Positions 7,004-23,719 of a stretch of 24,068 bases of DNA are shown piece by piece; position 1 is the first letter of the stretch; each line of letters opens with the position of its first letter. This DNA comes from an uncultured virus (IMG/VR IMGVR_UViG_2061766007_000155) (lineage: Duplodnaviria; Heunggongvirae; Uroviricota; Caudoviricetes). The notes beneath the pieces were generated by a model. It was not told where the DNA came from, made no database searches, and saw only the letters and a list, made by a program, of their open reading frames with translations. The stretch is taken from the IMG/VR virus record IMGVR_UViG_2061766007_000155; one strand, 5' to 3'. Both the position numbers and the translations under genes were made by a program.

Positions 7004-7128
7004 AGCCGCTGTACCGATTTTTCCGTCCGTTGTGATTGCCCCATGACCGTGGTCGCCGGCTGCCGCCGTCGTACTGGTCGTTCCCAGGGAAGGCATGGTG
7101 ATTGTCCGCTCGGTAACCGCGGAGACAT
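7004..7128 (-). repeat. SNP-variant duplicate of the fibre 5' region (about 10332-10455)
   Basis: Near-identical sequence encoding TTSTTAAAGDHGHGAITTDG versus TSSTTAAAGDHGHGAITKDG. Flanked by N gaps. Confidence 0.85.
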
Positions 7129-7138
7129 NNNNNNNNNN

Positions 7139-7819: not shown

Positions 7820-8178
7820 CAGAAATTCTGCCCGCAGTCCGAGTTGTTGAACCATAGGTTAGGCGCGTCCATCCCCTCGGAGTTGGAGATGTCGCCGCGG
7901 ATGTCGTGGGTGTCCATGAACCTGGGACCGTTACCCTTGAAGCCGTAGCCGTCGAACACGTATCCGTGCGGTATGATGCCCGGCATCCCGTTGCGGAAAT
8001 GCACGAGGTCGAACTTTCCGTCCCGGGTGAACCGCCAGTCGCGTACCTTTACCGGACCTCTCAGGGGAGGCATGTCGGGAAGGGTCGGGATAGACGGGGG
8101 TACCGGGGGCATCCCGCAGGGAGGCCGGAAGTACCCGGGAGGGCCGAACATTTTCGATGGCTTGGACATATCGGGCAT
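7819..8178 (-). CDS. Proline-rich hypothetical protein, about 119 aa
   Basis: AAGGAG lies just upstream (the true start may be the Met at 8169). Translationally coupled to the next gene. CATAAACT motif at 8231-8238. Confidence 0.65.
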   Translation of the reverse strand: MPDMSKPSKMFGPPGYFRPPCGMPPVPPSIPTLPDMPPLRGPVKVRDWRFTRDGKFDLVHFRNGMPGIIPHGYVFDGYGFKGNGPRFMDTHDIRGDISNSEGMDAPNLWFNNSDCGQNF

Positions 8179-8314: not shown

Positions 8315-10981
8315 CTACACTAGACCCAGAGGCAATACTATTATCGTTGCTTTGAACGTAGTTGCCGCATAGCCAGTCGTTGTATACGAATTTGGCAGGA
8401 CTTGGAATGTCATAGTAATTGGGTGGCTAGAAACAGGTTGATTGCTAGCGCGCCCGATGTGGAACATCATAAATGTATTATTGCTCAATGCCGGGAACGG
8501 GCCATACTGTTCCGCTAGGTAATTATCCACTTCAACTGTAACTTTCTCAAGCACATTAATTGCGCTCCCGGAATCACCAGAGTTTGTCTTTACCGATTCA
8601 CGAATAAAGAAAAACATTAAAGCACCTGTAGGCCAATCTTTAACAGGAACGTACGTTCCTAATGAAATCGTATGTTCATTCGCATTGGCCGGAATGTTAA
8701 TGTCCACCATCCTGGCATAGGAATTTCCATCATTTGGATGGCTTGTTGTTCGACATCCGGGAAGTAAATCCATCCCAACTCGCACCGGAGTGGCATTCCG
8801 CACATAGCGTTCAACATAATCATGTACATAGTATGTTGATGGGAAGAAGGTCATGTGGCCCAAGCCAGAATTCGTTAATCCAGCACCCTGGGCGGTAGAA
8901 CGGTTCGTTATTGTTCGAGCTTTTGTAGTAAGTGCCAGCATACCATCACGCTCATCGCAACTGATGTATGACCCGTATTCATCGAAATCACCCCAGGCAC
9001 CATCGGTATAGTGCTTGAAATATAATGTCTGGCCCTTTGACCCAAACTTAATAAAATTCAATTCACCCGGAATACATGATGGCATTAATGGATTTGCTGT
9101 TGACGTAGCACTAGCATCGATTAATCGCAGTGACATTGAGCCTGCAGTCAAATAGCCAAGATTTGTTTGCCCAAATGACCTAGTGTCAGACCCAAGCAGA
9201 GTTGCACGCGAAAGAGACTCGACGGTTGAATAAACTGAACCTAATGCAGTAGGCAATTGTCTGGTGTAGAAACTATTTGTACCACTACTGTCAGTTTGCG
9301 TAGTATTAGACGGATTAACCGCAAACATCGTATAGGTATTATCAGCATATGGCGTAATCGCATAGCTTTGTACATATTCATGGTTGAGGTAAGTTGCCTT
9401 TCCCTCATCAGACCTGATAAGTTGAACGGTCGGGGTATTTGTATTATCTATGAGGCATTGAATTGTTGCGTTTGTACTTCCGGACGTCTGGTTTTTATAA
9501 ATACCATCAACAACCTGGCCGGTACCGGTACACATGATGGTATTGTCACTGCTGATAGAGATGCCAGAGCCGGCAGTAAGCTTACCTTGGAGTTTTACAG
9601 GCTTTGATGTGACAGTTTCATCTGAATTCACTGTAATAAAATTAACATTAGCGTTATTTCCATTCAAGCTCAGTTGGTAATATTCATAGTAAGAGCTTGC
9701 TTGCTGATGGCCCAATGAATAATAATCATAATTTCCGCGTGTCAGGTCTTTCACATAAATAGGGGTGTCTCCGTCAGCTAGAATATTGCTCGTTGACGTA
9801 AATGGTAACTGAATATTAGAAGATACTGGCCTGAGTTCGCGTGGTTCGGTTGCCTGTGTCCAGGTTGTCCACTTCGGAACCAAGTTGTTACCTTGATAAT
9901 CGAGTGTGAGTAATTTATATTGGCTTGAACTGTCCTGCGGAGGGTCCGGGATGGCCGTGGCAAATGACCATTCAAGATATTTGCTGCCATCTAATCGTAG
10001 TACGCTCCCTGGCGCTGCATCGTCTGTTAATGGAGCCACATAGCCAAGAGGAACCGATGAATCGTCCTGCAGTATCCCCGATACGGATTGGTCTGAAGTA
10101 CTAATCTTTAGGGTTTTTAGATTATTTGCTGTTGCACCAGACACTTTCTGCACGGTTGTGATAGCTGGCTTATTCAGAATATATGCGTCAGAACTGGCAT
10201 TAGTCTCGTTCCAGTTAGACTGTACGTTAACTTCAGCTCCGCTCTCTATNNNNNNNNNNTCATGTACCAGGTCACTGGCGGTTCCACCGGTAGTCAGTGC
10301 ACCACCAGTTCCGGTAACGACTAGCTTATCGGCCGCTGTACCGATTTTTCCGTCCTTTGTGATTGCCCCATGACCGTGGTCGCCTGCTGCCGCCGTCGTA
10401 CTGGACGTTCCCAGGGAAGGCATGGTGATTGTCCGCTCGGTAACCGCGGAGACATGGCTTTTTGAATCAGTGCTAATCTGGTTGACCTTGAAGGAACCGC
10501 CGAATGTCAGTGTCACGTCACCCGTGGGTACGCCGGTCTTCGAGGCGGCGCTCCCGTCGGGGTGTTCATAGTTGTTAAAGGATGCCCAGGTACCGGCCTT
10601 GGTAAGGGCTTCCGTGTCAGTGCTTCCGTCGAACTCAATGGTAGTTTTCTTGACGATGTTGTTGTCGCTATAGTCTACTATCAGGAGGGTATCCTTGTTC
10701 CCGATTGCGGTGGCGTTGTCGGTAACCTTTCCATCGGTAGTGATGTTACCGTGGCTATGGTTCAGCGAAGTGGCTGTACTATTGTTGCAGGTAAGTTCGA
10801 TTGCCGACTCACGGTTGAACTGTACCTTGTGCTTGTGGTTATTCAGATTAGTCTGTACGGTCTCGACGGCTCCGGTAGATGCCGCGTCGATGTTGGCACG
10901 AGCCTGTGTCTTGTTGTCAGAAGACAATACCTCTGTCTGGTCTACGTTCCACAATACCGAAGGTATTTTTGTATTAGCCAT
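8315..10981 (-). CDS. Long tail/head fibre protein, variant B (905 aa when the gap is filled from 6959-6899)
   Basis: GAAAGG RBS and ATG at 10981. Contains HxH motifs (HKH, HSHGNITTDG, DHGHGAIT), KTQARANIDA, AEVNVQSNWNET..SDAYILNKP and QGKLTAGSGISI. Reconstructed length is 2718 nt in frame. Confidence 0.8.
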   Translation of the reverse strand: MANTKIPSVLWNVDQTEVLSSDNKTQARANIDAASTGAVETVQTNLNNHKHKVQFNRESAIELTCNNSTATSLNHSHGNITTDGKVTDNATAIGNKDTLLIVDYSDNNIVKKTTIEFDGSTDTEALTKAGTWASFNNYEHPDGSAASKTGVPTGDVTLTFGGSFKVNQISTDSKSHVSAVTERTITMPSLGTSSTTAAAGDHGHGAITKDGKIGTAADKLVVTGTGGALTTGGTASDLVHXXXXIESGAEVNVQSNWNETNASSDAYILNKPAITTVQKVSGATANNLKTLKISTSDQSVSGILQDDSSVPLGYVAPLTDDAAPGSVLRLDGSKYLEWSFATAIPDPPQDSSSQYKLLTLDYQGNNLVPKWTTWTQATEPRELRPVSSNIQLPFTSTSNILADGDTPIYVKDLTRGNYDYYSLGHQQASSYYEYYQLSLNGNNANVNFITVNSDETVTSKPVKLQGKLTAGSGISISSDNTIMCTGTGQVVDGIYKNQTSGSTNATIQCLIDNTNTPTVQLIRSDEGKATYLNHEYVQSYAITPYADNTYTMFAVNPSNTTQTDSSGTNSFYTRQLPTALGSVYSTVESLSRATLLGSDTRSFGQTNLGYLTAGSMSLRLIDASATSTANPLMPSCIPGELNFIKFGSKGQTLYFKHYTDGAWGDFDEYGSYISCDERDGMLALTTKARTITNRSTAQGAGLTNSGLGHMTFFPSTYYVHDYVERYVRNATPVRVGMDLLPGCRTTSHPNDGNSYARMVDINIPANANEHTISLGTYVPVKDWPTGALMFFFIRESVKTNSGDSGSAINVLEKVTVEVDNYLAEQYGPFPALSNNTFMMFHIGRASNQPVSSHPITMTFQVLPNSYTTTGYAATTFKATIIVLPLGLV

Positions 10982-11009
10982 CTGGTTACCTTTCAATCCT
11001 TATACAAAC

Positions 11010-11053
11010 GGTAGTTTATACCGGGCTCCCCCAATCAAATGCTATAAACTACC
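11010..11053. promoter_or_regulatory. Divergent pair of TATAAACT promoters forming an 11-bp inverted repeat
   Basis: GGTAGTTTATA (11010-11020) and TATAAACTACC (11043-11053) are perfect reverse complements with a 22-nt spacer. The 8-mers lie 31 and 29 nt from the two divergent ATGs. Confidence 0.7.
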
Positions 11054-11079
11054 AACAACGACATACCGGGTCCGGCAAA

Positions 11080-12861
11080 ATGGCAGAAAAGTTAATAAAG
11101 AAGCTCAACAACAGGGAATTCTACGCGAAATATTCGGACTACGCCGCCATGGACGAGGACGGCGAGCGCCTCTCGGACCGCAAGGTCAAGTCCGTGTCGC
11201 TGGACGCGGCCTCGGGAACCATGACCGTCACCAGCACGGACGGCTCCCAGGCAATCCCGGTGGTCCCCGATGCACCGCACACGCAGGGCCTCGTATTGAG
11301 AACCAACGCGGACGGAACATATGCATGGGGAGCGGCCGGCGCCGAACCGGGCCGGGGCAGACTCCTTATGAGACTCGGGAGTGCACCGGAAGCTACCGAT
11401 ACCGGGTTCAACGCCAACTCGGAGACCGATGTTACTGTGGACATCCCGGTAGCGTCCGCCGTCGCAGGGGAAGAGACTGATGGACTGATGACGTCCTCGG
11501 ACAAGTCGAAACTTGACGGAATCGAGACGGGGGCACAGGCAAACAAAATTGAGACTGTGCAACTGAACGGTACGGCGGTAACGCCTACCGGAACGACGGT
11601 GAATATCCAGTTGGACAAGAGTTCGGTCGGTCTCGGCAATGTCGAGAACACGAGCGACCGTGACAAGCCGATTTCAACGGCTACGCAGTCCGCGCTTGAC
11701 GAGAAAGCCGGAAAGGCCACCACGCTGGCCGGGTACGGCATCACCGACGTCTACACGAAGACGGAAACCGGTACCCTGCTCGACGGAAAGGTGGACACGG
11801 TAACCGGCAAGGGTCTTTCCACCAACGACTACACCACCGAGGAAAAGAACAAGCTTACCGGCATCGAGACGGGGGCGCAGGCCAACGTAATAGAATCCGT
11901 CAAGGTAGACGGCACGGCATTGACCGTAGATACGAACAAGGCAGTGAACATCCCGTTGGCGTCTGCCACCGATTCGGGGAACGAGACTGTTTATGTGACG
12001 GGTGTGGTGACCGGTCAGGACAAGGAAAAATGGGACAGCTGGGAAACCATTTCGGTGACTATACCAGACCATTCATTGGATGGTTTTCTGTACTTGACCT
12101 ACTTCGAGAATCTTGAACCTTACGCCGTATCCAGAACTACCGATACCCCTGTTATCGGTGATATTACTTACTACTGGCATTACACCGGACATGCGACGGT
12201 GCCATCTACTATCAATGAATATGTGGAAAGTTCCTACACGGGCTTACCTGCAATGACCGTGCTAGCCAGTGATAGTAATAGCATGACGGTAGAAAACCGC
12301 CAAGGGTTTGCCGAACGCAGCACCGTACTAGACCTTCTGCAAAGCGTAGAAACATTCTCGTTTGAGGTCATACTGAATATAGGCTCATTTGAGGGTCTAT
12401 GGGGCGGTTTGGCTTTCGGGTGCTCGGCAGGCGAGTCAAACTATGGCATGAATGTCAATGTCTATGAGTCCTCCCGCGGTCTCGGCATCGGCCTTCCGGG
12501 GTGGTACGGGACTGGGACGAATCGCTGCACGGCAACGAGTAATTTCGATTTGAAATCTTATGATTCCGGTAGGGATGTCCATGCGCTTCCCAAGGACGCA
12601 AATAAACGCCGGGGTATCGGCATACACCACCTTGCCGTTGTTGTCGACCGTACTGCCAACGAGGCTCGCGGATACTTCGACGGGGAACTGGCCATACGAC
12701 GCCCGACAATCTCAGAGATTGGTAACATTGCCAATTACTCGTTCACCAACGACATGAACGACACCTTGCAATACACGCAGTTTGCAATCCGAGAGGGCGA
12801 CTGCTCTACCAACGGTGGCCTCAACTATCCGGTTCCGACCAAGCCGTATGTCAAATTCTAA
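11080..12861 (+). CDS. Fibre protein with C-terminal LamG/ConA-like head, 593 aa
   Basis: Fibre repeats GLMTSSDKSKLDGIETGAQ, VGLGNVENTSDRDKPISTATQSAL, TTLAGYGITD and GKGLSTNDYTTEEKNKL. Head contains HHLAVVVD...RGYFDGEL, a LamG-like pattern. Confidence 0.8.
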   Translation: MAEKLIKKLNNREFYAKYSDYAAMDEDGERLSDRKVKSVSLDAASGTMTVTSTDGSQAIPVVPDAPHTQGLVLRTNADGTYAWGAAGAEPGRGRLLMRLGSAPEATDTGFNANSETDVTVDIPVASAVAGEETDGLMTSSDKSKLDGIETGAQANKIETVQLNGTAVTPTGTTVNIQLDKSSVGLGNVENTSDRDKPISTATQSALDEKAGKATTLAGYGITDVYTKTETGTLLDGKVDTVTGKGLSTNDYTTEEKNKLTGIETGAQANVIESVKVDGTALTVDTNKAVNIPLASATDSGNETVYVTGVVTGQDKEKWDSWETISVTIPDHSLDGFLYLTYFENLEPYAVSRTTDTPVIGDITYYWHYTGHATVPSTINEYVESSYTGLPAMTVLASDSNSMTVENRQGFAERSTVLDLLQSVETFSFEVILNIGSFEGLWGGLAFGCSAGESNYGMNVNVYESSRGLGIGLPGWYGTGTNRCTATSNFDLKSYDSGRDVHALPKDANKRRGIGIHHLAVVVDRTANEARGYFDGELAIRRPTISEIGNIANYSFTNDMNDTLQYTQFAIREGDCSTNGGLNYPVPTKPYVKF

Positions 12862-12879
12862 TTATTCGTGGAGTATCTA

Positions 12880-13884
12880 ATGGCCAATAATCAGATAAAT
12901 TTGTGGAAAAAGTACAACGGAAAGGGATTCTCCGCAGAACATGCGGACTATGCCGAGAAAGCTACTGCCGACGAGTATGGCAACGCAATACATGAGACCT
13001 ACGCCACGAAGACGGAATTGCCAGATATTACTGGAAAGGCGGACAAGGTCACCGGCGGTACGGAAAATCACGTAGTTTCCCTCGATGCTGCCGGTAATAT
13101 CAAGGACTCCGGTATACCGGCCACTACCGCCGCAGAAGGAACTTCTTCGCTTGTAGTGACCAACACCACGTCGAACAACGCAACCACGACTACATACGAA
13201 TGGAAAGGGTGGACTAGCAAGACAGTGCAAGTACCGTACGAATACGTGGTCATTGGCGATAGGGCATACAAGACAGTCACTATCGGAAACCGGAAGTGGA
13301 TGGCGGAAGATTTGGATTACATGCCCGAAACCGGAATAACTCTGGTTACCGAGCGTTTCGATGCCAACCACGTCATTGATTCATCGCAATCCGTAGCCTG
13401 CTACATGAATTTCGACCAGGCAAATTCACGTGATAAGAACCTTGGATTGCTGTACAGCTTGAAGGCAGCCAAGTATCTGATAGCCAACCAGTCTACATTA
13501 TTCCCGTCGGGCTGGCGTATTCCAGTAAAGGCCGACTTCCAGTCTATAGAATCTGCACTCAACATTGTATATTCGTCAACTGCGCCGGAATTAAGAACAC
13601 CGAATTTAAGTTGGTGTAATAATGAATGGAATTATTTCAATCCATCTAACTCATCTGGCTTTACTGCATTGCCGGGTGGGGGCATTGATTGGAATTCTAA
13701 TAATGGTAACAATTTCTTTGGTGGATATACTTACCGCTATCGTTGCGTTGGTAATTATACGTGGAATATTAATTTGCCTAATGACTTATCCGGTATGACG
13801 CTATCTGGCACCGCGTATCACAATATCAACACGGAGTTCGGTGCCGGCATGGCATTGCCTATCCGCCTCGTAAAGGATGTTTAA
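12880..13884 (+). CDS. Short fibre protein with Fib_succ_major (FISUMP-like) head, 334 aa
   Basis: GGAG RBS. Shaft motifs KATADEYGNAIHETYATK and GKADKV..GNIKDSG. Head motifs YKTVTIGNRKWMAEDL, GLLY, PSGWRIP, SGFTALPGG and IRLVKD. Confidence 0.85.
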   Translation: MANNQINLWKKYNGKGFSAEHADYAEKATADEYGNAIHETYATKTELPDITGKADKVTGGTENHVVSLDAAGNIKDSGIPATTAAEGTSSLVVTNTTSNNATTTTYEWKGWTSKTVQVPYEYVVIGDRAYKTVTIGNRKWMAEDLDYMPETGITLVTERFDANHVIDSSQSVACYMNFDQANSRDKNLGLLYSLKAAKYLIANQSTLFPSGWRIPVKADFQSIESALNIVYSSTAPELRTPNLSWCNNEWNYFNPSNSSGFTALPGGGIDWNSNNGNNFFGGYTYRYRCVGNYTWNINLPNDLSGMTLSGTAYHNINTEFGAGMALPIRLVKDV

Positions 13885-13885
13885 T

Positions 13886-15547
13886 ATGGCAGAAAAACCC
13901 AAACAAAATATAGACATGTGGACTTCGTTTGACGGAAAAGGCTTTTCCGCCAAGCACGCCGAATACGCCGAGCGTGCAACCACCGACGAAATGGGAAACG
14001 ACCTCACCCTCACCGTCGAGAGCAACAAGGTCACCGCAATCGGCGGAAAGCTTATTTCCGCAGTAGCCCCCGCCGAGATGACCGGTGCCACCGCATCTAC
14101 GGACGGTGAATCCGGGCTAGTCCCCGCGCCCGCAGCCGGGGACCAGGACAAGGTGCTACGGGGAGACGGCACATGGGTGAACGTGCCCGTGGCTGTTGCG
14201 TCCACCTCCGGCGCAGGCGGAACCGACGGCCTTATGCCGGCCACCGACAAGGAGAAGCTGGACGGGGCGAAGTCCTTCTCCACGGTCAAGGTAACCGACT
14301 CGGGAGTCACCGCCACTCTTCCGGCAAACTCGCTCAACGAGGACATCGAACTGGTTGCCGGTGACAATGTCACCCTCGAGGCCGGGCTGGTAATCGGCGG
14401 TCGCCAGTACAAGACCGTCAAGATTGGCAACCAGGTGTGGATGGCGGAGAACCTCGACTTCCTCCCGGATGGAATCGAACTTCATGAGGATTCCCCTGCC
14501 GATGCTGATTTCGCGACGGCTGGCGCCTGGTACTACGGCAACGACAAGGTTACGGCGCAGTCACGCGGCTATGGGCTGATATATAATTCGGAGGCAGTCG
14601 ATTACCTGGAATCTAACAAGGCCACTTATTTCGATGGATGGCACGTGCCTACCAAGGCTGACATGGATGTCTTTGTACAGAACAACCGTGAATCGCTTCG
14701 CGCGTCAGTTCCTTGGGCTTATAGCGACTGGGTGAACGGTACTGCAACCAACACTACCGGGTTCACTGCGATACCGTGCGGCGATATTCTTGATGGTACT
14801 GGTTCAAATCCTCCATATTTTCATGGGGGCTGCAACAGGATGGAACTATGGTCAGCAACGGTAAACGGGGCAGGAAACCAGTATTTTGTGCCAATTTCCG
14901 GTACTTCAACCTTCTATGTATCCGATAATTCCAAAAGCGCAAGCTATGCACGTTCTATCCGTCTCGTCAAGGACGACTCCACCCTCCCCAACAAGGTAAG
15001 AATCTCAAGCGACGCCGCACTGGAAAAGTCAATCTACGGAACATACATAGCAGGCGAGCAGGGTGAAGGCATCGAGGGAGAGTCCGGGTTGCTGAGCCTC
15101 GGCGAGAACTCCGTGGAACTCTACGACACGTTCAAGGGTGTCAAGTTCGGCGCCGAGCGTGCCGTCGCCGACCGCGACGGCAACATCATCGACGAGACGT
15201 ACGCAAAGACGTCCGATGTCACGGCCGCACTTTCCGGGTACGCAACCAAGTTCGTCCCGGACACGAAGACGGCCGCTGCATCGGTCACCGTCGACAACAA
15301 CAAGGTCACCTCCATCGCCGGGGTCACCGGGTCAATCGCCATTGACATCTCCGTGGCTTCCGGGGAATGCTCCAACACCGCCGTGGAAATCACCACCGGT
15401 ACAGTCGCCGCCGACAGCGCGGTCACCGTCACTGTAAACAGTACGGCAGCAAGCCGTGCCGCCGCCACTGACGGGAAGATTGAATCCAACAAGAAGTACC
15501 AGGTGGTCTGCGTGGGCACATGCTGGACAATGGCGGAGTTCGGGTGA
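13886..15547 (+). CDS. Fibre/adapter protein with an internal FISUMP-like domain and a C-terminal Cys-containing beta domain, 553 aa
   Basis: AAAGGA RBS. Shaft motifs GLVPAPAAGDQDKVLRGDGTW and GLMPATDKEKLDG. FISUMP at about 14390-14974 (YKTVKIGNQVWMAENL...GWHVP...GFTAIPCG...SIRLVKD). Ends KYQVVCVGTCWTMAEFG. Confidence 0.85.
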   Translation: MAEKPKQNIDMWTSFDGKGFSAKHAEYAERATTDEMGNDLTLTVESNKVTAIGGKLISAVAPAEMTGATASTDGESGLVPAPAAGDQDKVLRGDGTWVNVPVAVASTSGAGGTDGLMPATDKEKLDGAKSFSTVKVTDSGVTATLPANSLNEDIELVAGDNVTLEAGLVIGGRQYKTVKIGNQVWMAENLDFLPDGIELHEDSPADADFATAGAWYYGNDKVTAQSRGYGLIYNSEAVDYLESNKATYFDGWHVPTKADMDVFVQNNRESLRASVPWAYSDWVNGTATNTTGFTAIPCGDILDGTGSNPPYFHGGCNRMELWSATVNGAGNQYFVPISGTSTFYVSDNSKSASYARSIRLVKDDSTLPNKVRISSDAALEKSIYGTYIAGEQGEGIEGESGLLSLGENSVELYDTFKGVKFGAERAVADRDGNIIDETYAKTSDVTAALSGYATKFVPDTKTAAASVTVDNNKVTSIAGVTGSIAIDISVASGECSNTAVEITTGTVAADSAVTVTVNSTAASRAAATDGKIESNKKYQVVCVGTCWTMAEFG

Positions 15548-16203
15548 TGATTGTATCGGCTGGTATTCTTGCATTGTCCACCTCGGCATTGCCTGATGGA
15601 TATACACGGGTGAATTATATCGAGAACAACTCCGGGGCGACATACTTCAATACCGGTATTGGATTGAACAAGACTGATACCGTAACCGTAGAGTGTGTAG
15701 TATATCCGGAATCAAACCATATCTATGCGCCGCTTTTTGGTGGCCGTGAAGGGCAATTTGTAAACAACTATACATTGGGTGTGAAGTATGATTCAGCGGC
15801 AAATTGGTACCTGGAAAAGGACTATACGATGCAGCGGTGGTCTAATTATTCCATGCTAAACGTGCACTGCCTCTTAACGACATATGTAAACGGAACGCAC
15901 AGCTATCTAGATGTAAAGACTATAAGTACCGGCGAGGTGTCGACCTATCAAAACGATAACATTGGCGCTGGTATTACTCCGGTATGCTACCTGTTCTCAA
16001 TGAACAACAATGGCTCAAAATACACAGGTTCAACTTACGGTAAAGTGTTCGATTTCGCTATCTACACTAATGATGGCACCGAACGATGCCATCTTGTGCC
16101 GACTTTGCGGAATTCCGATAGGGTTTCCGGGTTTTATGACATTACGAATGACAGGTTTATTACTAATGGCGCCGGCGCAACCGGCTACCATACGTACGGC
16201 TAG
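15547..16203 (+). CDS. Stand-alone LamG/ConA-like phage adhesin-type domain protein, 218 aa
   Basis: TGATG coupling to the upstream stop. The pattern LPDGYTRVNYIE...YFNTGI...HLVPTLRNSD..SGFYD is one I recognise from phage fibre-associated lectin-like domains. Confidence 0.7.
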   Translation: MIVSAGILALSTSALPDGYTRVNYIENNSGATYFNTGIGLNKTDTVTVECVVYPESNHIYAPLFGGREGQFVNNYTLGVKYDSAANWYLEKDYTMQRWSNYSMLNVHCLLTTYVNGTHSYLDVKTISTGEVSTYQNDNIGAGITPVCYLFSMNNNGSKYTGSTYGKVFDFAIYTNDGTERCHLVPTLRNSDRVSGFYDITNDRFITNGAGATGYHTYG

Positions 16204-16530
16204 TCAAGGGTAGGCAGAATCTCGTCGAACTGCCAGGACTTTTTCCTCTGCACGCTGTCGGACACCGTCATTGCTGTCGACATCTTCTCCGCATAGTCCT
16301 TCGGCCCCTTGTACCGGCAATGAAGTATCCTCATGCGTTCGTCGTACAACTTATACGGACATTTCGGTATGCCGACTCCCTGGATGTTCCTACCGTCGGG
16401 CAGCAGCGCCCCCAGGAACACCGAGTTCTTCGGCACATGTCCGCCACATGGATTCTCCCAGGTTTCCTCGTAGTGAATCCGGCCGTACCTCCTGACGATT
16501 GTCTTGACGGTACCGTCGCCAAGCCACATG
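16200..16530 (-). CDS. 3' end of the glycosyltransferase gene that starts at 21946
   Basis: Reverse-complement variant of 23411-23719 that continues to ...WQFDEILPTLD*. 16481-16530 is the exact reverse complement of 24019-24068. Confidence 0.85.
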
Positions 16531-16540
16531 NNNNNNNNNN

Positions 16541-17493
16541 ACAAGGTCCTAACGGTAGACGACCAAGGAGATACGGTTTGGAAAGCATTCGACCGCGATA
16601 TGGTCGGCACACAATTGCTCGACGAGCATGACGCTCCGATGCTTGACGAGACTACCCAGGAACCAATCTACGACGCCGGCGCCACCGACCAGCTCTGGAC
16701 CGGTTTCGCCGGGAAGGGATTCGGCGCCATCCGCACCTACGCAGACCAGGACGGCAACAACATCAAGACGACCTACCTCAAGAAGGTGGACTTGCCTGAA
16801 ATGGACGAGGCAACAGACACTGAAATTGACAACATGTTTACCGTCGTGATAGGCACTCGTACGTACCGCACAGTTACAATCGGCAACCAGGAATGGCTAG
16901 CCGAGAATCTTGATTACCAGTTCGACTGTAACGGTTCTCCGCTTCCGGTCGACGAGCCCGGTCTCATCGATACACCGGCCGCGTGGTACTATAACAACGA
17001 GCCAGCCACCTATGGAATCGACGGAACATACAAGTGCGGCCTTCTGTATAACCAATATGCGGTCATGTACTTGAATGAACACAAGGACACATTGTTGCCT
17101 GATGGTTGGCATGTTCCGTCCGGGTATGAATGGTCGACAATGTGGGATGAAATCGGCGAGCGTATTGGCAATATTGGCAGTAGATATAACTGTGGCCTCC
17201 TGTTGAGGGCGCGTGATGGTTCCGTGACTAGCAATTGGCCTAGCGGATGGTCCGGAACAGACAATTATGGTTTCACTGTTTTACCGGCTGGCCGCTATCT
17301 TAATTCGTCGTTCATCGAACTTGGAACTAGCGCAAATTTCTGGACAAAGGACTATACTGCGTCGAGTCGTGCAAGTTCGTTTGCCGGGTTTGGCGTTGGG
17401 GTAGATGCAGATACGCCAGAACAGTGTGTGGTGTATGGTACGACTAGTATGAATGAGGGCTTCTCGCTCCGTCTGGTCAGGACGATTTCATAA
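16541..17493 (+). CDS. Fibre protein with C-terminal FISUMP-like head (5' truncated at gap)
   Basis: KVLTVDDQGDTVW, ADQDGNNIKTTY and EATDTEIDNMF, then YRTVTIGNQEWLAENL...GLLYN...PDGWHVP...YGFTVLPAG...SLRLVR. Confidence 0.85.
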
Positions 17494-17506
17494 AGGAGTT
17501 TGACAA

Positions 17507-18004
17507 ATGGCTTCAGAAGATTACGTTAGTGTAAGGCGATTACAAAGGTTCTATGACAAGCTGAAAGTGTGGCTGTTCAAGAACTATGCACCCAAGTCGT
17601 ATGTAGACTCCGTAGCCAACGGTCTTGAGACCGCGCTGGATACCCTGAACGACACGATGGAGTCCGTGGCCCACGCCGGGATGTACGACCTCGGAACAAA
17701 GACCGAATCCAACTTGAGCAACGGAAAGCTGGCTATCGGCTGCGGCAACTCAACAACGGAACTGACCCTGACTACGGTGAACGCACTGACCGTACTGGCC
17801 AACCCCGGGGTGGCGAACTTCGCGCTGCTGGTGGACAACACCAGGAATTCGAACGCCGTAACCGTTACCGTCAAGGATAGCGCCGATGCGAATACGTTCT
17901 ACCAGTCTACAGATGCCGGCAACACGATTGGCGCCGGCAAGATTTGCCAGGTCACCTGCGTGGGCAAGTGCTGGACGCTGGCCGAGTTCGAGGCTCCGGC
18001 GTAG
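17507..18004 (+). CDS. Putative fibre adapter protein, 165 aa
   Basis: AAGGAG RBS. N-terminal helix YVSVRRLQRFYDKLK. C-terminal domain KICQVTCVGKCWTLAEF is homologous to the end of the 13886 protein. Confidence 0.75.
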   Translation: MASEDYVSVRRLQRFYDKLKVWLFKNYAPKSYVDSVANGLETALDTLNDTMESVAHAGMYDLGTKTESNLSNGKLAIGCGNSTTELTLTTVNALTVLANPGVANFALLVDNTRNSNAVTVTVKDSADANTFYQSTDAGNTIGAGKICQVTCVGKCWTLAEFEAPA

Positions 18005-18014
18005 GAGACTGGGT

Positions 18015-18695
18015 ATGATTCTGACGCATGGCGGAAATAGTATTAGTAAAGGTGGGGGATTCCCATCGAGTGCAATGATTGATGGCCGTGAGTATAAAGT
18101 TACTAAAATTGGTAATAAACTCTGGACTTGCAGTAATTATATTCCAAGTTGGGAACCTGTTAATACTGGATATACAGAGTATTGTAGGTGGCAAGGTGGT
18201 AATGCCCTAAATCCTAGTTCAGAAATTAGAGCTAAAGGGATATTCATTAAGCATGCGAATTCAATCGGACTAGGGAACTTTGTTAAATCTTATCTAAGTG
18301 ATGGTTGGAGAGTACCAACTATGGAGGATTATACCTCCTTACTCAATGCCATAGGTGGAAGAGATAATGGATATAAGTTACTTAGCGTTGATGCCATCGG
18401 GTATGATTCGCTAACTCTAACTGATGAATATGGATTTAATTTATTTAACTATGGTATCGGTTCACCAAAATATCCATTCACTGGTAATTATGAATGGAAG
18501 TCTGATGGAGGTAATTATGCGTATTTCATGATTAATATCGAATGGATTGCTGATTCAGATAATTATTATCCATACATTGCATTCATTGACCGTGACCAAG
18601 GATATGAAGGAAAATTATCGTATTCTCGAGAACAGACATATAGTTTGTATTATGAAGCATACTATCCAATCCGTCTCGTAAAAGATGCAACTTAA
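18015..18695 (+). CDS. Stand-alone divergent FISUMP-like protein, 226 aa (AT-rich)
   Basis: AGGAG RBS at 18003-18007. Motifs YKVTKIGNKLW, DGWRVP, TDEYGFNL and PIRLVKD. Confidence 0.8.
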   Translation: MILTHGGNSISKGGGFPSSAMIDGREYKVTKIGNKLWTCSNYIPSWEPVNTGYTEYCRWQGGNALNPSSEIRAKGIFIKHANSIGLGNFVKSYLSDGWRVPTMEDYTSLLNAIGGRDNGYKLLSVDAIGYDSLTLTDEYGFNLFNYGIGSPKYPFTGNYEWKSDGGNYAYFMINIEWIADSDNYYPYIAFIDRDQGYEGKLSYSREQTYSLYYEAYYPIRLVKDAT

Positions 18696-18718
18696 TTTTA
18701 ATCAAAGGATTTTAAATC

Positions 18719-19453
18719 ATGTCAATCTCAACAGAACTCACCCGCATGGCCGGCAACGTAGGTGCCCTCGCCGCCGACACGAACGCAATCTTCGAGGCGC
18801 TCCGTGCGAAGGGCGTGGATGTACCTCCCGGTGCACAGTTGAGTGACGTGGCGGATATGATTGGGGAGATTGTCCCGCCAGAGCCGACCGAGGTCGAAAT
18901 AGGCGGACGTACCTATCCTATAGTCAAGATAGGCGACCAGTGGTGGCTGGCCGAGAACCTGGACTGGAAATTCAGTGGATGCCGGTTCCTCGCGTCGAGC
19001 GCCACAGGATACTCGAACGCATGTGCCTACTACGGAAATGCATCCGACCAACCATACCAGCATTATGGACTTAGCTACGACTACTATGCTTGTCAGGCAC
19101 TTTACGAGGCCAACATACTGCCCGACGGATGGCGAGTCCCCGTCAGGAATGACTATGAGACCCTAATCACGTACATCGGCAATGACGCGAGCAAGGTAAA
19201 ATCGAAAACTAACTGGGAAAACGGCACTGATACCGATGACTACGGGTTCTGCGCATATCCGACCGGTGAACGCCGAGACGACGGTAACTGGTACCAGCTG
19301 AACGAATGTACCGGATTCTGGTTCTTTAAGCCAGGACAGTCTGGTATAGGTTCTGACCAGGTATACCTGCATTACAATAGCGGCAGCGTGACTATTAGGG
19401 GCGTAAACGTGCAGAATTTTTATCCTATCAGGTTAGTCAAAGACGTGACTTAA
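18719..19453 (+). CDS. FISUMP-like head with N-terminal helical anchor, 244 aa
   Basis: MSISTELTR...AKGVDVP...LSDVADMIGEI, then YPIVKIGDQWWLAENL...PDGWRVP...DDYGFCAYPTG...PIRLVKD. Confidence 0.85.
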   Translation: MSISTELTRMAGNVGALAADTNAIFEALRAKGVDVPPGAQLSDVADMIGEIVPPEPTEVEIGGRTYPIVKIGDQWWLAENLDWKFSGCRFLASSATGYSNACAYYGNASDQPYQHYGLSYDYYACQALYEANILPDGWRVPVRNDYETLITYIGNDASKVKSKTNWENGTDTDDYGFCAYPTGERRDDGNWYQLNECTGFWFFKPGQSGIGSDQVYLHYNSGSVTIRGVNVQNFYPIRLVKDVT

Positions 19454-19468
19454 TTAAAGGTATTTATT

Positions 19469-20266
19469 ATGTCAATCCAGTCAGAACTCACCCGCCTCCG
19501 TGCAAACGTCCTCTCCTCCGTCACCACCCAGGCGGCCATCCTCGCCGCCATAGCCGACAAGGGAGTCACGGTGCCTCCCGAGGCGACCCTGCACGACGTC
19601 CCCAGATTAATTGGGGAGATACCAGGACGCGTGCCGGAACCGGTAACCACGGTCACGATAGGAAGCCGGGCGTATCGGACGGTAACCATAGGGAACCAGG
19701 AATGGCTCGCGGAGAACCTCGACTACAAGTTCCAGTACAACGGTTCCGTGCTGCCTATCGGAACCAGCAAACTAACGGCGACATCCCCGGGCGCCTGTTA
19801 CGTTAATGACGCCGAGAGTTCTTATGGAATAGACGGGACGTACAAGTGCGGCCTGCTGTACAACTGGTTCGCCGTCAAGTACCTTGAGGACAACAAGGCC
19901 ACTTTGCTGCCGGAAGGCTGGCATGTCCCGGTATATGCCGAATGGGCCACCCTGTTCAACGAGGTCGGCGGGATTTCCGCCGCGGCGTCAAAACTGAAGG
20001 CTGCCACGGATTCAGTGGTGTCTGAGTACCCGGCAAGCAGTTGGGGCGGCGACTCGGACTCGTACGGGTTTTCTCTGCTTCCGGCAGGCACGTTCTACTA
20101 TGGATATGGCTTTGACGGGTTCGGGGCCGCCTCGCGCCTATGGACCCCGGAAAAGAATAGCAGCGACCTTGGGTTATTGGTTCGGGTCAGCCGCACCACC
20201 ATCGATTCGGATTATGATGGGCGTCCCCACGCAATGTCGGTCCGTCTCGTCAAGGACGCCTCCTAG
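19469..20266 (+). CDS. FISUMP-like head with N-terminal helical anchor, 265 aa
   Basis: MSIQSELTR...DKGVTVP...LHDVPRLIGEI, then YRTVTIGNQEWLAENL...GLLYNW...PEGWHVP...YGFSLLPAG...SVRLVKD. Confidence 0.85.
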   Translation: MSIQSELTRLRANVLSSVTTQAAILAAIADKGVTVPPEATLHDVPRLIGEIPGRVPEPVTTVTIGSRAYRTVTIGNQEWLAENLDYKFQYNGSVLPIGTSKLTATSPGACYVNDAESSYGIDGTYKCGLLYNWFAVKYLEDNKATLLPEGWHVPVYAEWATLFNEVGGISAAASKLKAATDSVVSEYPASSWGGDSDSYGFSLLPAGTFYYGYGFDGFGAASRLWTPEKNSSDLGLLVRVSRTTIDSDYDGRPHAMSVRLVKDAS

Positions 20267-20299
20267 GACGGCCCGGGGTTTCCCGGGAGAATACGGATA

Positions 20300-20307
20300 T
20301 ATAAACT
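20300..20307 (+). promoter_or_regulatory. TATAAACT candidate late promoter
   Basis: Intergenic, 31 nt before the ATG at 20339. Preceded by a small CCCGGG-GTTT-CCCGGG hairpin (20272-20287). Confidence 0.65.
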
Positions 20308-20338
20308 AGAATTAAACAGTTAGAATCCGGAGGATTCC

Positions 20339-21856
20339 ATGGCAGACGAAATTCGTGGTCAGCGGATGAGCGAGTACACCGACATCGACCAGGCGTCGGA
20401 GCTCAGTTCAACCGAAAAGGCGTATTATAAGGCAAACGCAAGGGTCACCACCTTCGGCAAAGTCGATGACGAAGCATCAACGCCAAACAGCAACTATAAC
20501 ATTCCTTTGAGCGAAATCGCCGGGGAAGCACTGCCGACTATTCAAGCCGGCGACGCCGGAAAAGTACTTACAGTCAACGCTAATGAAGATGGTACACAAT
20601 GGGATACAGTGGATGTCCTTCCTGAGATTGACGCGGAACATGATTTTCAAAAAGTACTCACAGTTGCCCAAGGCGGTAACCTTGAATGGTCTGACGTAAA
20701 CATTCCAACATATTCTGCAGATTATCCTATCACGATGTCCGGATATAGCTTCGGATTGAATTATAAAAATGACCAGTTTAAACTTGGCGGGACTAACAAC
20801 AATGAATTAACCCTTACCAATCCGGTGCCTGCACCAGGCACCAATCAACATCGCGGAGAGTTCTTAACGGTAAATAATTCCGATGAAATCGTGTGGGGCG
20901 CTGCACCGGCACCATCAATTAAGGGTTCCGCCACCATTAACTATGACACAGGTAATAGTGGTGCGCTCTCGGTCAAGTACAATAGCGATTCACTCGATTC
21001 CGATGGAACAAACGGCTTGAAAGTGAAACTTCCTGTGCCACCAACCGCAAGTGCAAATGAAGGTGATGTTCTTACTATTGATTCTAATGGTGATATCGGC
21101 TGGGAACCAGTACAAGGGGGTGGCGGTGGTTCGAGCGTACCAGAATATACCGCAGATGATGAAAATAAAGTTTTGGGTGTATTTGTTGATAGAGTATGGG
21201 ATAGGCAAAGTTCTAAATACGTGATTACTGATACTCGTCTTGGGTGGAGAGAGGGGATTCCTGAATTTCCAAATCTCGGCTCCGGCGGCGAATGGGGAGT
21301 GGAACCTGTTGTAAAACTATCATACAACTATAATAATGAATCTGGCGAATATGAAATGTCAAGTAAAGCAGGATTTGCCGGTTGCCCATATAATACATTC
21401 GGCGAAAATGGAAGTGCACAATATGGAACATGGCGTTTCGCAGAATGGGAAGATTATGGAGACTATCCATATTCAGTAGTGAATAATACTTATGTTGCCG
21501 AAATTGATAATAACTGGTTTATAAATTTTGGATATTTAAGAGATGGCTATGACCCTGACCCTGAATATTCGGAACCAGAACATCCTGATGCCAATTCAAT
21601 ACTTTTCAAAGTTAAACATCATGGTGCAATTGTTCCATTTGTGTGCATTGAATTTATCAATGAATCTGGAAAAACTTTAACGGTTTCTGTTGAAAGTGAA
21701 GAAACTGGCGGTGGTTTCGGTGAAACTATGGTTCCTATAACTGATAATGGTGTAAGCGTTAATAACGTAATACCCAATAATACATTTGTTCAAATTACCG
21801 TTCTAGGTCATGGCTATACGATTAAAACACAGTCATCCGAGTTACCGGTACATTAA
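20339..21856 (+). CDS. Fibre-like protein with five (L/V)P..KVLTV..W repeats, 505 aa
   Basis: GGAGG RBS. Repeats LPTIQAGDAGKVLTV..W, LPEIDAEHDFQKVLTV..W, VPAPGTNQHRGEFLTV..W, VPPTASANEGDVLTI..W and VPEYTADDENKVLGV. The C-terminal FVQITVLGHGYTI resembles the adapter domain. Confidence 0.75.
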   Translation: MADEIRGQRMSEYTDIDQASELSSTEKAYYKANARVTTFGKVDDEASTPNSNYNIPLSEIAGEALPTIQAGDAGKVLTVNANEDGTQWDTVDVLPEIDAEHDFQKVLTVAQGGNLEWSDVNIPTYSADYPITMSGYSFGLNYKNDQFKLGGTNNNELTLTNPVPAPGTNQHRGEFLTVNNSDEIVWGAAPAPSIKGSATINYDTGNSGALSVKYNSDSLDSDGTNGLKVKLPVPPTASANEGDVLTIDSNGDIGWEPVQGGGGGSSVPEYTADDENKVLGVFVDRVWDRQSSKYVITDTRLGWREGIPEFPNLGSGGEWGVEPVVKLSYNYNNESGEYEMSSKAGFAGCPYNTFGENGSAQYGTWRFAEWEDYGDYPYSVVNNTYVAEIDNNWFINFGYLRDGYDPDPEYSEPEHPDANSILFKVKHHGAIVPFVCIEFINESGKTLTVSVESEETGGGFGETMVPITDNGVSVNNVIPNNTFVQITVLGHGYTIKTQSSELPVH

Positions 21857-21884
21857 TAACCAATTGTCTTTCTTAAATCTAAAA

Positions 21885-21912
21885 TGGACGGTAGCAATGC
21901 CGTCCACTTTTT
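21885..21912 (+). terminator. Rho-independent terminator
   Basis: TGGACGGTA-GCAA-TGCCGTCCA followed by CTTTTT, about 30 nt after the 21856 stop. Confidence 0.85.
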
Positions 21913-21945
21913 GTTATATTGTATAATAAATAGCAAATTCAAATT

Positions 21946-23719
21946 ATGCCTAAATACACTATCATATCCTACTGTTTCGGCAACTACGACATCCTCCGCG
22001 AACCGGAACACGTCGACCCGGATGCCGAATATGTCTACGTCACCGACAAGGAAATTCCTTCAAAAAACTGGAAGGTCATAGTCGACCCCGTACTATCCAA
22101 GAAGGACCCCCTCTACGCCACCTACTACGTCCGGCACCACCCGTTCGAATTCGCCTCCACCCCGATAGTAGTCACAATCGATTCCTCGGTCCAGATTCAC
22201 GATTCACTGTCCGACATCGTGACCGCGTTCGACAAGTCAGGTTCGGACTACTCCGTGCTCTGCTCCATCTACAAGTCCGATGAGCACAAGATAGAGGAAT
22301 GGCTCAAGCGTAAGCCGGTCCGGGTATCCGGCCACGACGTAGAAGCCCTGAAGAAGTTCATCAAGAAGTTCGGCCAGGAAGGCTGGCGAGGCGCAATCGG
22401 GCAGGCGTTCAACATCTACCGGGATTCTCCATTGATGCGGAAATTTTCCCGGCACGTGTGGCGCTACCTTCTCGCCCTGGGAGAAGACAATAAGCCGGTC
22501 AGGATAGACGAAATAGTGGTCCACAAGCTGCTCGCGAGATACCCGGAGCTAAAGGTATTCGTCACCAGCCTGCAGATAGTGCAGTCCACCTACATGACAT
22601 ACTGCGGGCACTTCACGCAGACTCCTGTCATAACGTACAACAACTACGACCAGTACTACTACCTCTGCAACAAGCCGGTATACCCGCACCGCTTCGACAA
22701 GAAAATCATATTCCCGACAGAATACAGGTACAGGACCGAGGCGATGCTGCTGACCAAGTATCTCAACCCCGATGACATCCGGGAATGGCTGGACCATCAC
22801 CTCAACGTCTGCAAGTTCGACCGAATANNNNNNNNNNTTTCACACAGAACCCGGTGATACAGTACAACAACTACGACCAGTACTACTACCTGTGCAACCG
22901 CCCGGTATACCCGCGCCGTTTCGACAAGCGGATACTGTTCCCGACAGAATACAGGTACAGGACCGAGGCAATGCTCCTTACAAAGTACATCAACCCCGAT
23001 GACCTCCGGGAATGGCTGGACCATCACCTCAACGTCTGCAAGTTCGACCGAATACACGTTTTCGACAACGAGTCCGGCTACGACGTCAAGTCAATCTGCG
23101 AGGAATACGGTGGCAGGGTCACGTACGAGCTCGTCGAGGGACAGGCCTACCAGTACCGCCTCTACGACTCCTACGTCGAGTGCCGCTCCAACGCCGAATG
23201 GATAATCCCGCTCGATGACGACGAATTCCTGGACATAGGCGGCTTCCCGTCAATCTACGACGGGGTCATGTACTACCGGAACAAGTTCCCCCACATGGAC
23301 ATGTTCGCCATCCGCTGGAAGCACCTGTTCCCGAAGAAGTTCAAGGAGGAACGCACAGGGAAGGTACTGGAGTACTGCACCGAGGAGAACCCGGAGCTCG
23401 CCAAGAAGTTCATGTGGCTTGGCGACGGTACCGTCAAGACAATCGTCAGGAGGTACGGCCTGATTCACTACGAGGAAACCTGGGAGAACCCCTGCGGCGG
23501 ACACGTGCCGAAGAACTCGGTGTTCCTGGGGGCGTTGCTGCCCGACGGTAGGAACATCCAAGGAGTCGGCATACCGAAATGTCCGTATAAATTGTACGAC
23601 GAGCGCATGAGGATACTGCACTGCCGGTACAAGGGACCGAAGGACTATGCCGCTAAGATGTCCACGGCGATGACGGTGTCCGACAGCGTGCAGAGGAAAA
23701 AGTCCTGGCAGTTCGACGA
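21946..23719 (+). CDS. Two-domain glycosyltransferase, DUF616-like N-terminus plus GT92/GT2-like C-terminus (about 522 aa reconstructed, split over contigs)
   Basis: N-domain YTIISYCFGNYDILREP..YVYVTD...VTIDSS. C-domain IREWLDHHL..FDRIHVFDNES...Q..Y...EWIIPLDDDEFL (DxD). Reconstruction: 21946-22827, then 23055-23719, then the tail taken from 16200-16530 on the minus strand. Confidence 0.8.

Follow-up and report, generated by a model that had tools for sequence, protein, structure and literature searches.

The IMG/VR record IMGVR_UViG_2061766007_000155, from an uncultured virus placed in the Caudoviricetes, is a stretch of 24,068 nucleotides (nt), here called the window, which holds a cluster of fibre-related genes between positions 11080 and 21856. 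A prediction made from the letters alone (the original prediction) had read this span as an array of ten such genes, in which heads of a FISUMP-like and a LamG-like type fill equivalent slots on phage fibre and adapter scaffolds. All ten genes are present as open reading frames (ORFs) on the plus strand, at 11080-12861, 12868/12880-13884, 13877-15547, 15547-16203, 16504-17493, 17507-18004, 18015-18695, 18719-19453, 19469-20266 and 20339-21856; we refer to each by its first position. For comparison, related proteins (P0002, P0003 and P0157-P0163) and contigs (L046-L052) were gathered by protein searches and by a metagenome scan with an alignment of the anchor described below, and custom hidden Markov models (HMMs) of the anchor, the adapter, the N-terminal motif (N-motif), FISUMP and two further head families (A and B) were run on every ORF of the window and of 10 related loci.

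Taken together, these genes present three conserved attachment devices: an N-motif with a shaft and a terminal junction; an adapter with a free-standing head behind it; and an N-terminal anchor. The N-motif of the first device has the form W-x2-F-x-G-K-x-F ... D-x2-G-N-x-I-x2-T-Y, and the shaft that follows it terminates in W-x2-W-x4-[VIM]-x-[VI]-P. The adapter of the second, about 165 amino acids (aa) long, has the end CVGxCWTxAEF and occurs as a protein of its own or as the terminal part of a fibre; behind it there is always the gene of a free-standing head, predicted to be coupled to it in translation. The anchor, finally, comprises the N-terminal 51 aa of its proteins and has the form MS[IL]QSELTRL...KGVTVP...LHDVPxLIGEI. 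No Pfam, PHROG or NCBIfam family matched the anchor, the adapter or the N-motif; for P0157, an anchor-FISUMP protein, the database lists a precomputed PF26707.1 entry, which may be a recent model that covers the anchor.

The N-motif opens the 11080, 12880 and 13877 proteins and occurs internally in those of 13877 and 16504. In the 593-aa fibre encoded by 11080-12861(+), it occupies aa 1-50 and is followed by tail-fibre repeats (aa ~110-310), the junction (aa 318-329; W-x2-W at nt 12031-12066) and a head of family B (aa 330-593). The short fibre of about 334 aa encoded by 12880-13884(+) combines the N-motif (custom HMM, E 3.8e-27) and the W-x2-W junction (nt 13201-13236; aa 112-123 of the ORF counted from 12868) with a FISUMP head (PF09603, E 6e-16; TIGR02145, E 2.8e-15). 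Hence, the junction originally formulated as W-x2-W-x4-V-x-[VI]-P lies, as had been claimed, directly before the heads of both proteins. The chance expectation for this strict form is about 0.005 matches over the 87,790 ORF residues searched, and the relaxed form, with [VIM] at the V position, adds four proteins in related contigs to make a total of six, in which it always stands directly before the head. The 13877-15547(+) gene encodes a 556-aa fibre with an N-motif, an internal FISUMP domain (aa 172-367; PF09603, E 2.4e-15), a second N-motif (aa 409-460) and a fused adapter (aa ~401-555); over 512 aa it is 63% identical to the C-terminal half of a 1004-aa fibre in L050 and L051. A scaffold gap falls within the ORF listed as 16504-17493, so that the initial residues are spurious and the gene lacks its 5' end. 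What lies past the gap, 16543-17493(+), encodes an N-motif and a FISUMP head (PF09603, E 4e-26); the full-length orthologues measure 385-403 aa, and those at L048:6755-7912 and L051:7628-8839 have two N-motifs each.

The second device is seen in two forms. The adapter encoded by 17507-18004(+) is free-standing (165 aa, with the C-terminal end ...CQVTCVGKCWTLAEF), and 10 nt past its stop codon, behind a GGAG, starts the gene for a free-standing FISUMP head of 226 aa that bears the tag MILTHGGNS (18015-18695(+)). The fused adapter of the 13877 protein is directly followed by 15547-16203(+), whose ATG overlaps the 13877 stop codon by one base and which encodes a free-standing head of 218 aa belonging to family A, predicted to be a LamG/pentraxin-like jelly roll. 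The homology between the 17507 protein and the 13877 C-terminus was recovered in an all-against-all BLASTP comparison (30% identity over 144 aa, E 4.5e-7), and with it the adapter slot proposed earlier, with a LamG-like head in one instance and a FISUMP head in the other. The third device is borne by the proteins of 18719-19453(+) and 19469-20266(+), of 244 and 265 aa, respectively, in which the anchor of 51 aa is joined to a FISUMP head (PF09603, E 1.8e-22 and 9.6e-28; anchor HMM for the former, E 6.8e-28); their common N-terminus, 51% identical between the two, agrees with the anchor slot that had been suggested for them. In an independent run (X5), a single contig with a depth of about 8 keeps the 19469 anchor and the downstream sequence and replaces the 635-nt head (window 19636-20272) by just 70 other letters; it may represent a headless or deleted variant.

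FISUMP (Fib_succ_major, PF09603 / TIGR02145) is a domain of the C-type-lectin-fold group targeted by diversity-generating retroelements (DGRs). PF09603 exceeds its Pfam gathering score of 33.9 bits in five of the 20 window ORFs scanned (12868, 13877, 16504, 18719 and 19469; 57.7-98.1 bits), and TIGR02145 exceeds its NCBIfam cut-off of 41.65 bits in the same five (57.5-95.6 bits). The 18015 protein reaches 39.9 bits with TIGR02145 (E 6.7e-10) over profile positions 7-176 of 176 and 19.5 bits with PF09603; it also carries the common C-terminal RLVKD motif and matches the custom FISUMP HMM at E 1.7e-49, in a model that included 18015 itself. We regard the five as real FISUMP domains and that of 18015, a full-length TIGR02145 match just under the cut-off, as a probable sixth. 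The earlier count of six FISUMP heads is thus sustained as a count of domains, five over the cut-offs and that of 18015 just under, whereas the domain of 13877 is internal and does not form a tip. The six are mutually 22-52% identical.

Two further heads, those of 15547 and 11080, had been described together as LamG-like, a description which survives for the first at the level of the fold and not as a common head type. LamG or ConA-like Pfam models matched neither head at E<=5, the 11080 head and four of its relatives gave no LamG-type Pfam match at E<=10, and the 15547 and 11080 heads showed no similarity to each other by BLASTP or profile comparison. A single 'LamG head type' was also tried by hhalign and rejected, family B against family A returning a probability of 0.2. 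By protein search, the 15547 head has just two close homologues. A profile search with family A among 1.84 billion representative proteins recovered 1380 relatives at E<=1e-3 (137 at E<=1e-10), many with 2-11 matched stretches and in proteins of up to 4205 aa. In 30 relatives that were scanned, no Pfam family covers the domain (E<=0.001). Family members (P0008-P0156) conserve the motifs LPxGYTxLEYIE...G.QYI.TG and P.xRxSDxVxGxYDxVxxxFxTN, and Listeria-Bacteroides repeats also occur in two of the 30 that were scanned.

The AlphaFold2 model of the 15547 head, built from a 42-sequence alignment, is all-beta with 16 strands (predicted local distance difference test (pLDDT) 91.8; predicted template modelling score (pTM) 0.88); it replaced a first model from 3 sequences (pLDDT 55), and the low-confidence early model had given Z 10-11 to ConA-like folds. 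Foldseek matches in the PDB include laminin alpha2 LG5, agrin G2, neurexin LNS2, SHBG and pentraxins (probability 1.00), together with the LG module of PAPP-A and the C-terminal domain of the CBA120 tailspike TSP2 (E 6e-5 to 7e-4, TMq 0.41-0.57 overall). In BFVD it matches uncharacterised phage proteins (E 4e-11, template modelling score (TM) 0.72) and many entries named ConA-like or LamG-like. Solved structures searched with the family A sequence profile gave non-significant mannanase matches alone (E 0.05-0.2), and with the family B profile none at E<=10. The modelled fold thus identifies the 15547 head as a LamG/pentraxin-like jelly roll, and it is not a member of the Pfam LamG families. 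For the 11080 head (aa 330-593), the low-confidence ESM Atlas model (whole-protein pLDDT 0.51) gave TM 0.50-0.58 to clusters often carrying Laminin_G_3, all under the service's bar, and its segment IHHLAVVVD...YFDGEL resembles what we take to be the core motif of Laminin_G_3; a LamG-like fold of this head is accordingly a weak lead. The same head recurs with 89% identity in P0003, where the scaffold is different and shorter.

Comparison with the related contigs shows that each of the three devices carries heads from two to four unrelated families. L046, L048 and L051 keep the gene order of the second half of the window cluster, namely a fibre with N-motif and FISUMP, the adapter, a free head, one or two anchor-head proteins and a glycosyltransferase (GT). 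The position behind the adapter is occupied by FISUMP in the window (18015), L046 and L048; by family A in L051 (L051:9360-9950) and, behind the fused adapter, in the window (15547); by family B in L050 (L050:703-1455); and by a 260-aa head of unknown family behind the fused adapters of L050 and L051 (minus strand in L051). On the anchor, FISUMP was found in all seven proteins of the anchor homologue search (with a weak match in P0160; Pfam E 0.028) and as a double domain in L046 and L050, while family A is present in P0002, with a head 67% identical to that of 15547, and family B in L047:2-829. As a side observation, a protein of a Bacteroidaceae metagenome-assembled genome (MAG; L056:1149-4613, G003:C85) has an anchor-type N-terminus with DUF285 repeats (E 1.4e-50) and is followed by three short FISUMP genes. 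Neighbouring genes of L051 have FISUMP and family B behind the N-motif and junction, and family B is found in this position again in P0003, with a much shorter shaft than in the window.

The boundaries between the conserved and the exchanged parts are evident from pairwise identities. Between the window and L046, the pre-adapter fibre is 92.5% identical (L046:1-723), the adapter 88% and the GT 91%, against 30% for the head behind the adapter; between the window and L051, the adapter is 79% identical, and the heads align over the first 14 aa (the tag) alone. Overall, the window adapter is 76-88% identical to those of L046, L048, L050 and L051. Anchors are 45-94% identical (65-94% without window 18719) and the FISUMP heads on them about 20-78%, with one anchor among those compared carrying a different fold; the 19469 anchor in particular is 65-90% identical to those of eight relatives, whose heads range from similar to another fold altogether. 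The cross-contig comparison, which finds one slot holding different head families, thus upholds the proposal of interchangeable heads on conserved scaffolds; fixed head-scaffold pairs were not seen in the related contigs, and hence the modular reading stands.

The free heads placed behind adapters share a further feature. All seven begin MI[LVY][TSM][HA]G irrespective of their fold (e.g., MILTHGGNS, MILTHGSNS, MIYTHGVNA and MIVMHGISS; that of window 15547, MIVSAGILA, is the most deviant), and all seven head genes either start 9-12 nt after the adapter stop, with GGAG or GGGG, or overlap it by their start codon. Two single-domain family A relatives from the representative search start in the same way. 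An adapter-like protein of 183 aa with the end CVGSCWTLAEF is also encoded in a Fibrobacter MAG (L131:1102-2003, G002:C48), where the overlapping ORF starts MIFTHHGINS; the remainder of this ORF is repetitive, and it may be degenerate. The adapter, combined with free heads that differ in fold but have a short N-terminal tag in common, is the most interesting new element of these loci. Judging from the sequences, the tag would dock the free head non-covalently on the adapter, and the close spacing of the two genes would let adapter and head be produced in coupled amounts. We tentatively propose, as a speculation that we would sooner expect to fail than to hold, that a tag of about 10 residues (MILTHGxNS-like) lets free heads of unrelated folds dock on one 165-aa adapter, making a plug-and-play adhesin which, together with the anchor and junction slots and with DGR mutagenesis in relatives, would constitute a host-recognition toolkit of Fibrobacter phages. 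The heads so far available to it may comprise the C-type-lectin-like FISUMP, two jelly rolls and one unknown fold. If true, whole head genes could be swapped between phages without in-frame recombination.

The remaining genes of the neighbourhood are fibre-like or code for GTs. The last of the ten, 20339-21856(+), encodes a fibre-like protein of 505 aa with repeated G-x-VLTV...G...W motifs, read from the translation, and a variable C-terminal part: it shares 47% identity with L046:4194-5120 over the first 285 aa and has no match there in the C-terminus. Pfam and PHROG scans gave no family for this protein and an IMG/VR scan no relatives; a 20339-like gene precedes the GT in L046, was not found in L048, and in L051 a 133-aa ORF matches its first 60 residues alone. 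Divergent from the 11080 gene is 8315-10996(-), for an 893-aa fibre-like protein with no Pfam or PHROG family, which is a paralogue of the 1007-aa protein of 4832-7855(-) (33% identity over 679 aa). Its first 38 aa are 74% identical to genes flanking the fused-adapter fibre in L050 and L051, and a short tail-fibre motif of about 30 residues (aa ~250-280), the sole sharing there, is found on 41 IMG/VR contigs. Downstream of the fibre genes lies a GT2-type GT at 21946-23719(+) (PF13704, E 9.5e-8), one gene of about 530 aa in relatives, which shows as two overlapping ORFs (21946 and 22785) because of duplicated sequence around the run of N at 22828-22837; the 536-aa protein of L049 matches these ORFs in successive parts (73% and 88% identity, respectively). 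GT genes in fact flank the fibre genes on both sides, at 897-1550(-) and 21946-23719(+) (DUF4422, E 2.3e-42; Glyco_tranf_2_4), and the pairing of GT and fibre cluster is conserved in relatives with 73-91% identity. L051 additionally has a TnpB/IS605 OrfB-like gene (L051:13237-14469; Cas12f1-like TNB domain, E 4.7e-9) between the GT and the inverted fibre block.

The arrangement of these genes in the window calls for some caution. The window is a gapped scaffold with 15 runs of N (e.g., 668-677, 4141-4150, 6960-7003, 16531-16540 and 22828-22837), most of them bordered by duplicated sequence that is 88-100% identical, as if overlapping or variant contigs had been joined in series. For this reason, ORFs that span gaps (16504 and 21946/22785) are unreliable; 4832-7855 and 8315-10996, which contain X residues, are likewise unreliable as gap-crossing ORFs. 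The uninterrupted pieces of the span are 10260-16530 and 16541-22827, separated by the gap of 10 N at 16531-16540, which is bridged by no listed contig from 4 runs. Immediately before it, at 16222-16530(-), is an inverted copy of a GT gene fragment, a 309-nt repeat 94% identical to 23411-23719, and this copy marks the true neighbour of the 11080-16203 block. In the probable source run, 16530 and 22800 are joined, on opposite strands, within one contig. The order in L051, a locus on a 104-kb metagenome contig whose remaining 84 kb were outside the analysis, is convergent, with the fibre cluster and GT on one strand and the head gene and fused-adapter fibre on the other, beyond which there is an 8315-like gene. 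Given the inverted repeat, the contig join and the convergent order of L051, the genes of 11080-16203 are probably inverted and located downstream of the GT gene, not upstream of 16504, and the ten genes probably form two convergent sub-clusters around the GT gene instead of one co-oriented array. The single contiguous ten-gene span envisaged originally is contradicted by the gap, the inverted GT repeat and the opposite-strand join, and part of the layout is an artefact of assembly. We also considered the 309-nt repeat as the mark of an invertible segment, which seems less likely, for there is no recombinase family in the 20 ORFs scanned and variant scaffolding with the convergent order seen in L051 fits better.

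Several lines of evidence connect this cluster to tailed phages. The 11080 protein matches 21 PHROG families, 6 tail, 2 virion structural and 13 of unknown function, the tail-labelled matches having E-values of 3.5e-9 to 7.7e-6, and in tblastn it matches tail-fibre genes of isolated phages. A stretch of 61 aa in its shaft (aa 234-294; nt 11781-11960) is 80% identical to a hypothetical protein of L004 (BK063680.1), i.e., Caudoviricetes sp. vir335, with Methanomassiliicoccales as the recorded host; this fibre-shaft module appears to be common to very different predicted hosts. For both non-FISUMP heads, the closest clusters in the ESM Atlas are 76-100% viral; the nearest BFVD clusters are viral as well, and distant FISUMP relatives occur in T4-like IMG/VR contigs with gp23-type capsid, gp15-type and baseplate genes. 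As for habitat, runs with word shares of 0.32-0.99 (those under 0.2 being excluded) are bovine gut metagenomes of four studies, containing 32-99% of the sampled words, with one study as the probable source.

A more specific link comes from Fibrobacter, a key rumen cellulose degrader from which, to our knowledge, no phage has been isolated. The anchor patterns found nothing in 185,579 species genomes. An alignment of the FISUMP heads against genome contigs returned, as its best 78 loci, four with the anchor, and the top three of the 78 are Fibrobacter MAG contigs (43-44% identity, E 4e-38 to 3e-36), each of which encodes a 306-aa anchor-spacer-FISUMP protein (L053:2614-5632, L054:2644-5847 and L055:2644-5847). 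On the 48-kb contig C51 (G002, L132-L134) of the Fibrobacter MAG that also holds the adapter-like gene of C48, genes for a portal, large terminase, tape measure, two baseplate hubs and two baseplate wedges are present in this order, and the baseplate wedges are followed by a 299-aa gene, anchor-FISUMP, a 280-aa gene and a reverse transcriptase; the contig also bears ordinary multi-FISUMP genes. The location of the anchor-FISUMP gene within this tail module implies that at least one lineage of Fibrobacter prophages uses its product as a tail-tip protein. In the three Fibrobacter MAGs (L053-L055), this gene is the target of a DGR, with 195-nt template/variable repeats whose mismatches fall at template adenines in 17 of 18, 18 of 19 and 9 of 10 cases; the template repeat lies about 1 kb downstream of the anchor-FISUMP gene and runs into the reverse transcriptase. 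P0157 and P0159, which have the window-type anchor, share the variable-region framework with these Fibrobacter DGR proteins. The window itself has no DGR: neither a reverse transcriptase family in the 20 ORFs scanned nor a template/variable repeat pair was detected. Two of the Fibrobacter MAGs contain 74 and 79 FISUMP matches at E<=1e-10, among which the phage-type head scores 235-236 bits and the best other FISUMP domains, mostly chromosomal paralogues, 105-113 bits. This gap in scores indicates a separate phage-borne lineage and not a recent capture of host paralogues; hence the suggestion that the phage displays a host-type domain applies at the level of the family, but not of the head lineage.

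On this evidence, we consider it likely that the window represents the receptor-binding (tail-fibre) supermodule of an uncultivated bovine-gut tailed phage, with Fibrobacter as a possible host. Its phage identity as such can be held with good confidence, whereas the Fibrobacter host is a provisional assignment that may well turn out either way. The proposed phage origin is supported indirectly, by the shaft repeats, the viral clusters and the prophage homologue, and a number of observations weigh against the interpretation. By Pfam and PHROG scans, capsid, portal, terminase, sheath and baseplate genes are absent from the window and L046-L052. The anchor alignment found no relatives in IMG/VR, and the 104-kb L051 contig did not turn up there either. 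Searches of 50,697 GenBank phage records by tblastn gave no match for 19469 (E<=1e-5) or for 8315-10996, 16543-17493 and 15547-16203 (E<=1e-3); megablast of the span against GenBank phages and an IMG/VR scan with the 15547 head were equally negative. The neighbouring GTs and the TnpB-like gene of L051 would also fit a cellular surface-structure locus, the assignment of Fibrobacter as host rests on MAG binning together with the 43-44% head identity, and the patchy scaffold makes gene order across 16531-16540 unreliable.

These observations leave room for other explanations. A cluster with fibre-like, GT and transposase-like genes and with no head or packaging genes found, as is true of the window and seven relatives, could code for part of a tail-like particle (tailocin or extracellular contractile injection system) or stem from a defective prophage of a rumen bacterium, with fibres that aim a particle and not an infectious virion; tail-fibre repeats and baseplate-adjacent anchors would fit equally well. 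We judge this unlikely, since C51 has portal and large-terminase genes beside its tail module, the nearest ESM Atlas clusters are predominantly viral, T4-like contigs that have a major capsid gene also encode FISUMP proteins, and the anchor was not found in the species genomes searched by pattern and is present on four of the best 78 loci from the FISUMP-head alignment. The GT genes on the flanks and the huge expansion of FISUMP in Fibrobacter are what one might expect of a cellular surface-adhesin locus, Fibrobacter-like or from Bacteroidota, with FISUMP lipoprotein paralogues beside GTs and a superficial likeness to fibres. However, signal peptides and lipoboxes are absent from the starts of all ten proteins, which open with an anchor, N-motif or tag; the shaft is matched by tail-fibre repeat families; the phage-type head is set apart by its score from the mostly chromosomal paralogues; and an anchor homologue is embedded in a prophage tail module, all of which makes such a locus very improbable.

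The assembly itself invites the suspicion that the arsenal is inflated, several FISUMP genes being alleles of one or two loci: 15 N-runs are for the most part bordered by near-identical duplications, a GT gene is present twice in pieces, and the depth differs between the halves of the span (about 42 against about 29), although contig depth cannot rank genes. Yet the two pieces are each uninterrupted, with two FISUMP genes in 10260-16530 and four in 16541-22827, the source run has error-free contigs for both, and six (L048) and nine (L051) FISUMP genes occur in the same order on single contigs. The mutual identity of the window heads is, moreover, far under allelic similarity, and we therefore give this explanation hardly any credence. 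The receptor-binding supermodule of a tailed phage accordingly remains our preferred reading of the cluster.

How does such a supermodule compare with known systems? Modular receptor-binding proteins (RBPs) of tailed phages typically have a conserved N-terminal anchor and an exchangeable C-terminal head, as exemplified by the shoulder-neck-head swaps of lactococcal phages and the fibre and tailspike adaptors of the T7/SP6/K1-5 type. The window resembles them in its conserved attachment parts, hypervariable or replaced distal parts, sharp boundaries and tandem RBP genes; it differs in attachment parts without a match in Pfam, PHROG or NCBIfam, in heads of the FISUMP and unnamed jelly-roll kinds, and in one slot where a separate tagged head gene takes the place of a fusion. 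Branched multi-tailspike systems are known from CBA120/Vi1-like phages (TSP1-4), G7C (gp63.1/gp66) and the Klebsiella phage PhiK64-1. The window shares with these the many RBPs per genome, and its small adapter-like parts suggest protein-on-protein attachment; unlike them, it has no beta-helix depolymerase or T4 gp10-like domains by Pfam and PHROGs, and its branching is putative. As the modular RBP principle is well established, we see the window as an extension of it and not as a new kind of system.

In the DGR literature, Fib_succ_major/DUF1566 (CLec-type) constitutes category 'd' of variable proteins (Wu et al. 2018, PMC5758913) and includes DGR targets in the 'Bacuni' siphophages of Bacteroides uniformis (PMC8143477), while a preprint on DGR ecology calls Fibrobacter DGRs 'not yet described and explored' (10.1101/2020.04.01.020958). 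Like DGR variable proteins, the window proteins place the FISUMP family at the C-terminal tip of phage-encoded proteins, and three Fibrobacter MAG relatives are true targets; unlike DGR systems, the window is without a reverse transcriptase or template/variable pair and draws its diversity from paralogous heads and cassette exchange. The text seen of the DGR papers (PMC5758913, PMC8143477) describes no multi-fibre arrays or adapter/tag arrangement. With the Fibrobacter FISUMP lipoproteins, the window proteins share the family by HMM, and their closest cellular-genome matches are the Fibrobacter MAGs (43-44% identity); in contrast to those lipoproteins, they are without a lipoprotein signal, and the best Fibrobacter matches are prophage genes. 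A full-text literature search of limited scope found no description of FISUMP-tipped fibre arrays, of the adapter and tagged-head pair or of the anchor.

Briefly, we advance the following plausible mode of action. The conserved parts (anchor, adapter and N-motif) would, from what their sequences suggest, dock on the baseplate or on each other, and the heads would bind glycans or proteins of the host surface. Exchange of head cassettes at the conserved boundaries could then shift host range, and DGR mutagenesis of the FISUMP tip might do likewise in some relatives. Against this backdrop, our analysis connects a group of contigs from uncultivated bovine-gut phages with Fibrobacter, and uncovers a large unnamed family of LamG-like domains with 1380 representative proteins. 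It further predicts FISUMP, earlier known mainly from Fibrobacter lipoproteins and DGR targets, to serve this lineage as its principal binding tip. Provided that the attachment parts and tag work as proposed, they would provide exact natural boundaries for the exchange of binding domains of unrelated folds; such boundaries would help to infer host range from viromes of the rumen and gut, and to see how phages keep up with the variable glycans of their hosts' surfaces.

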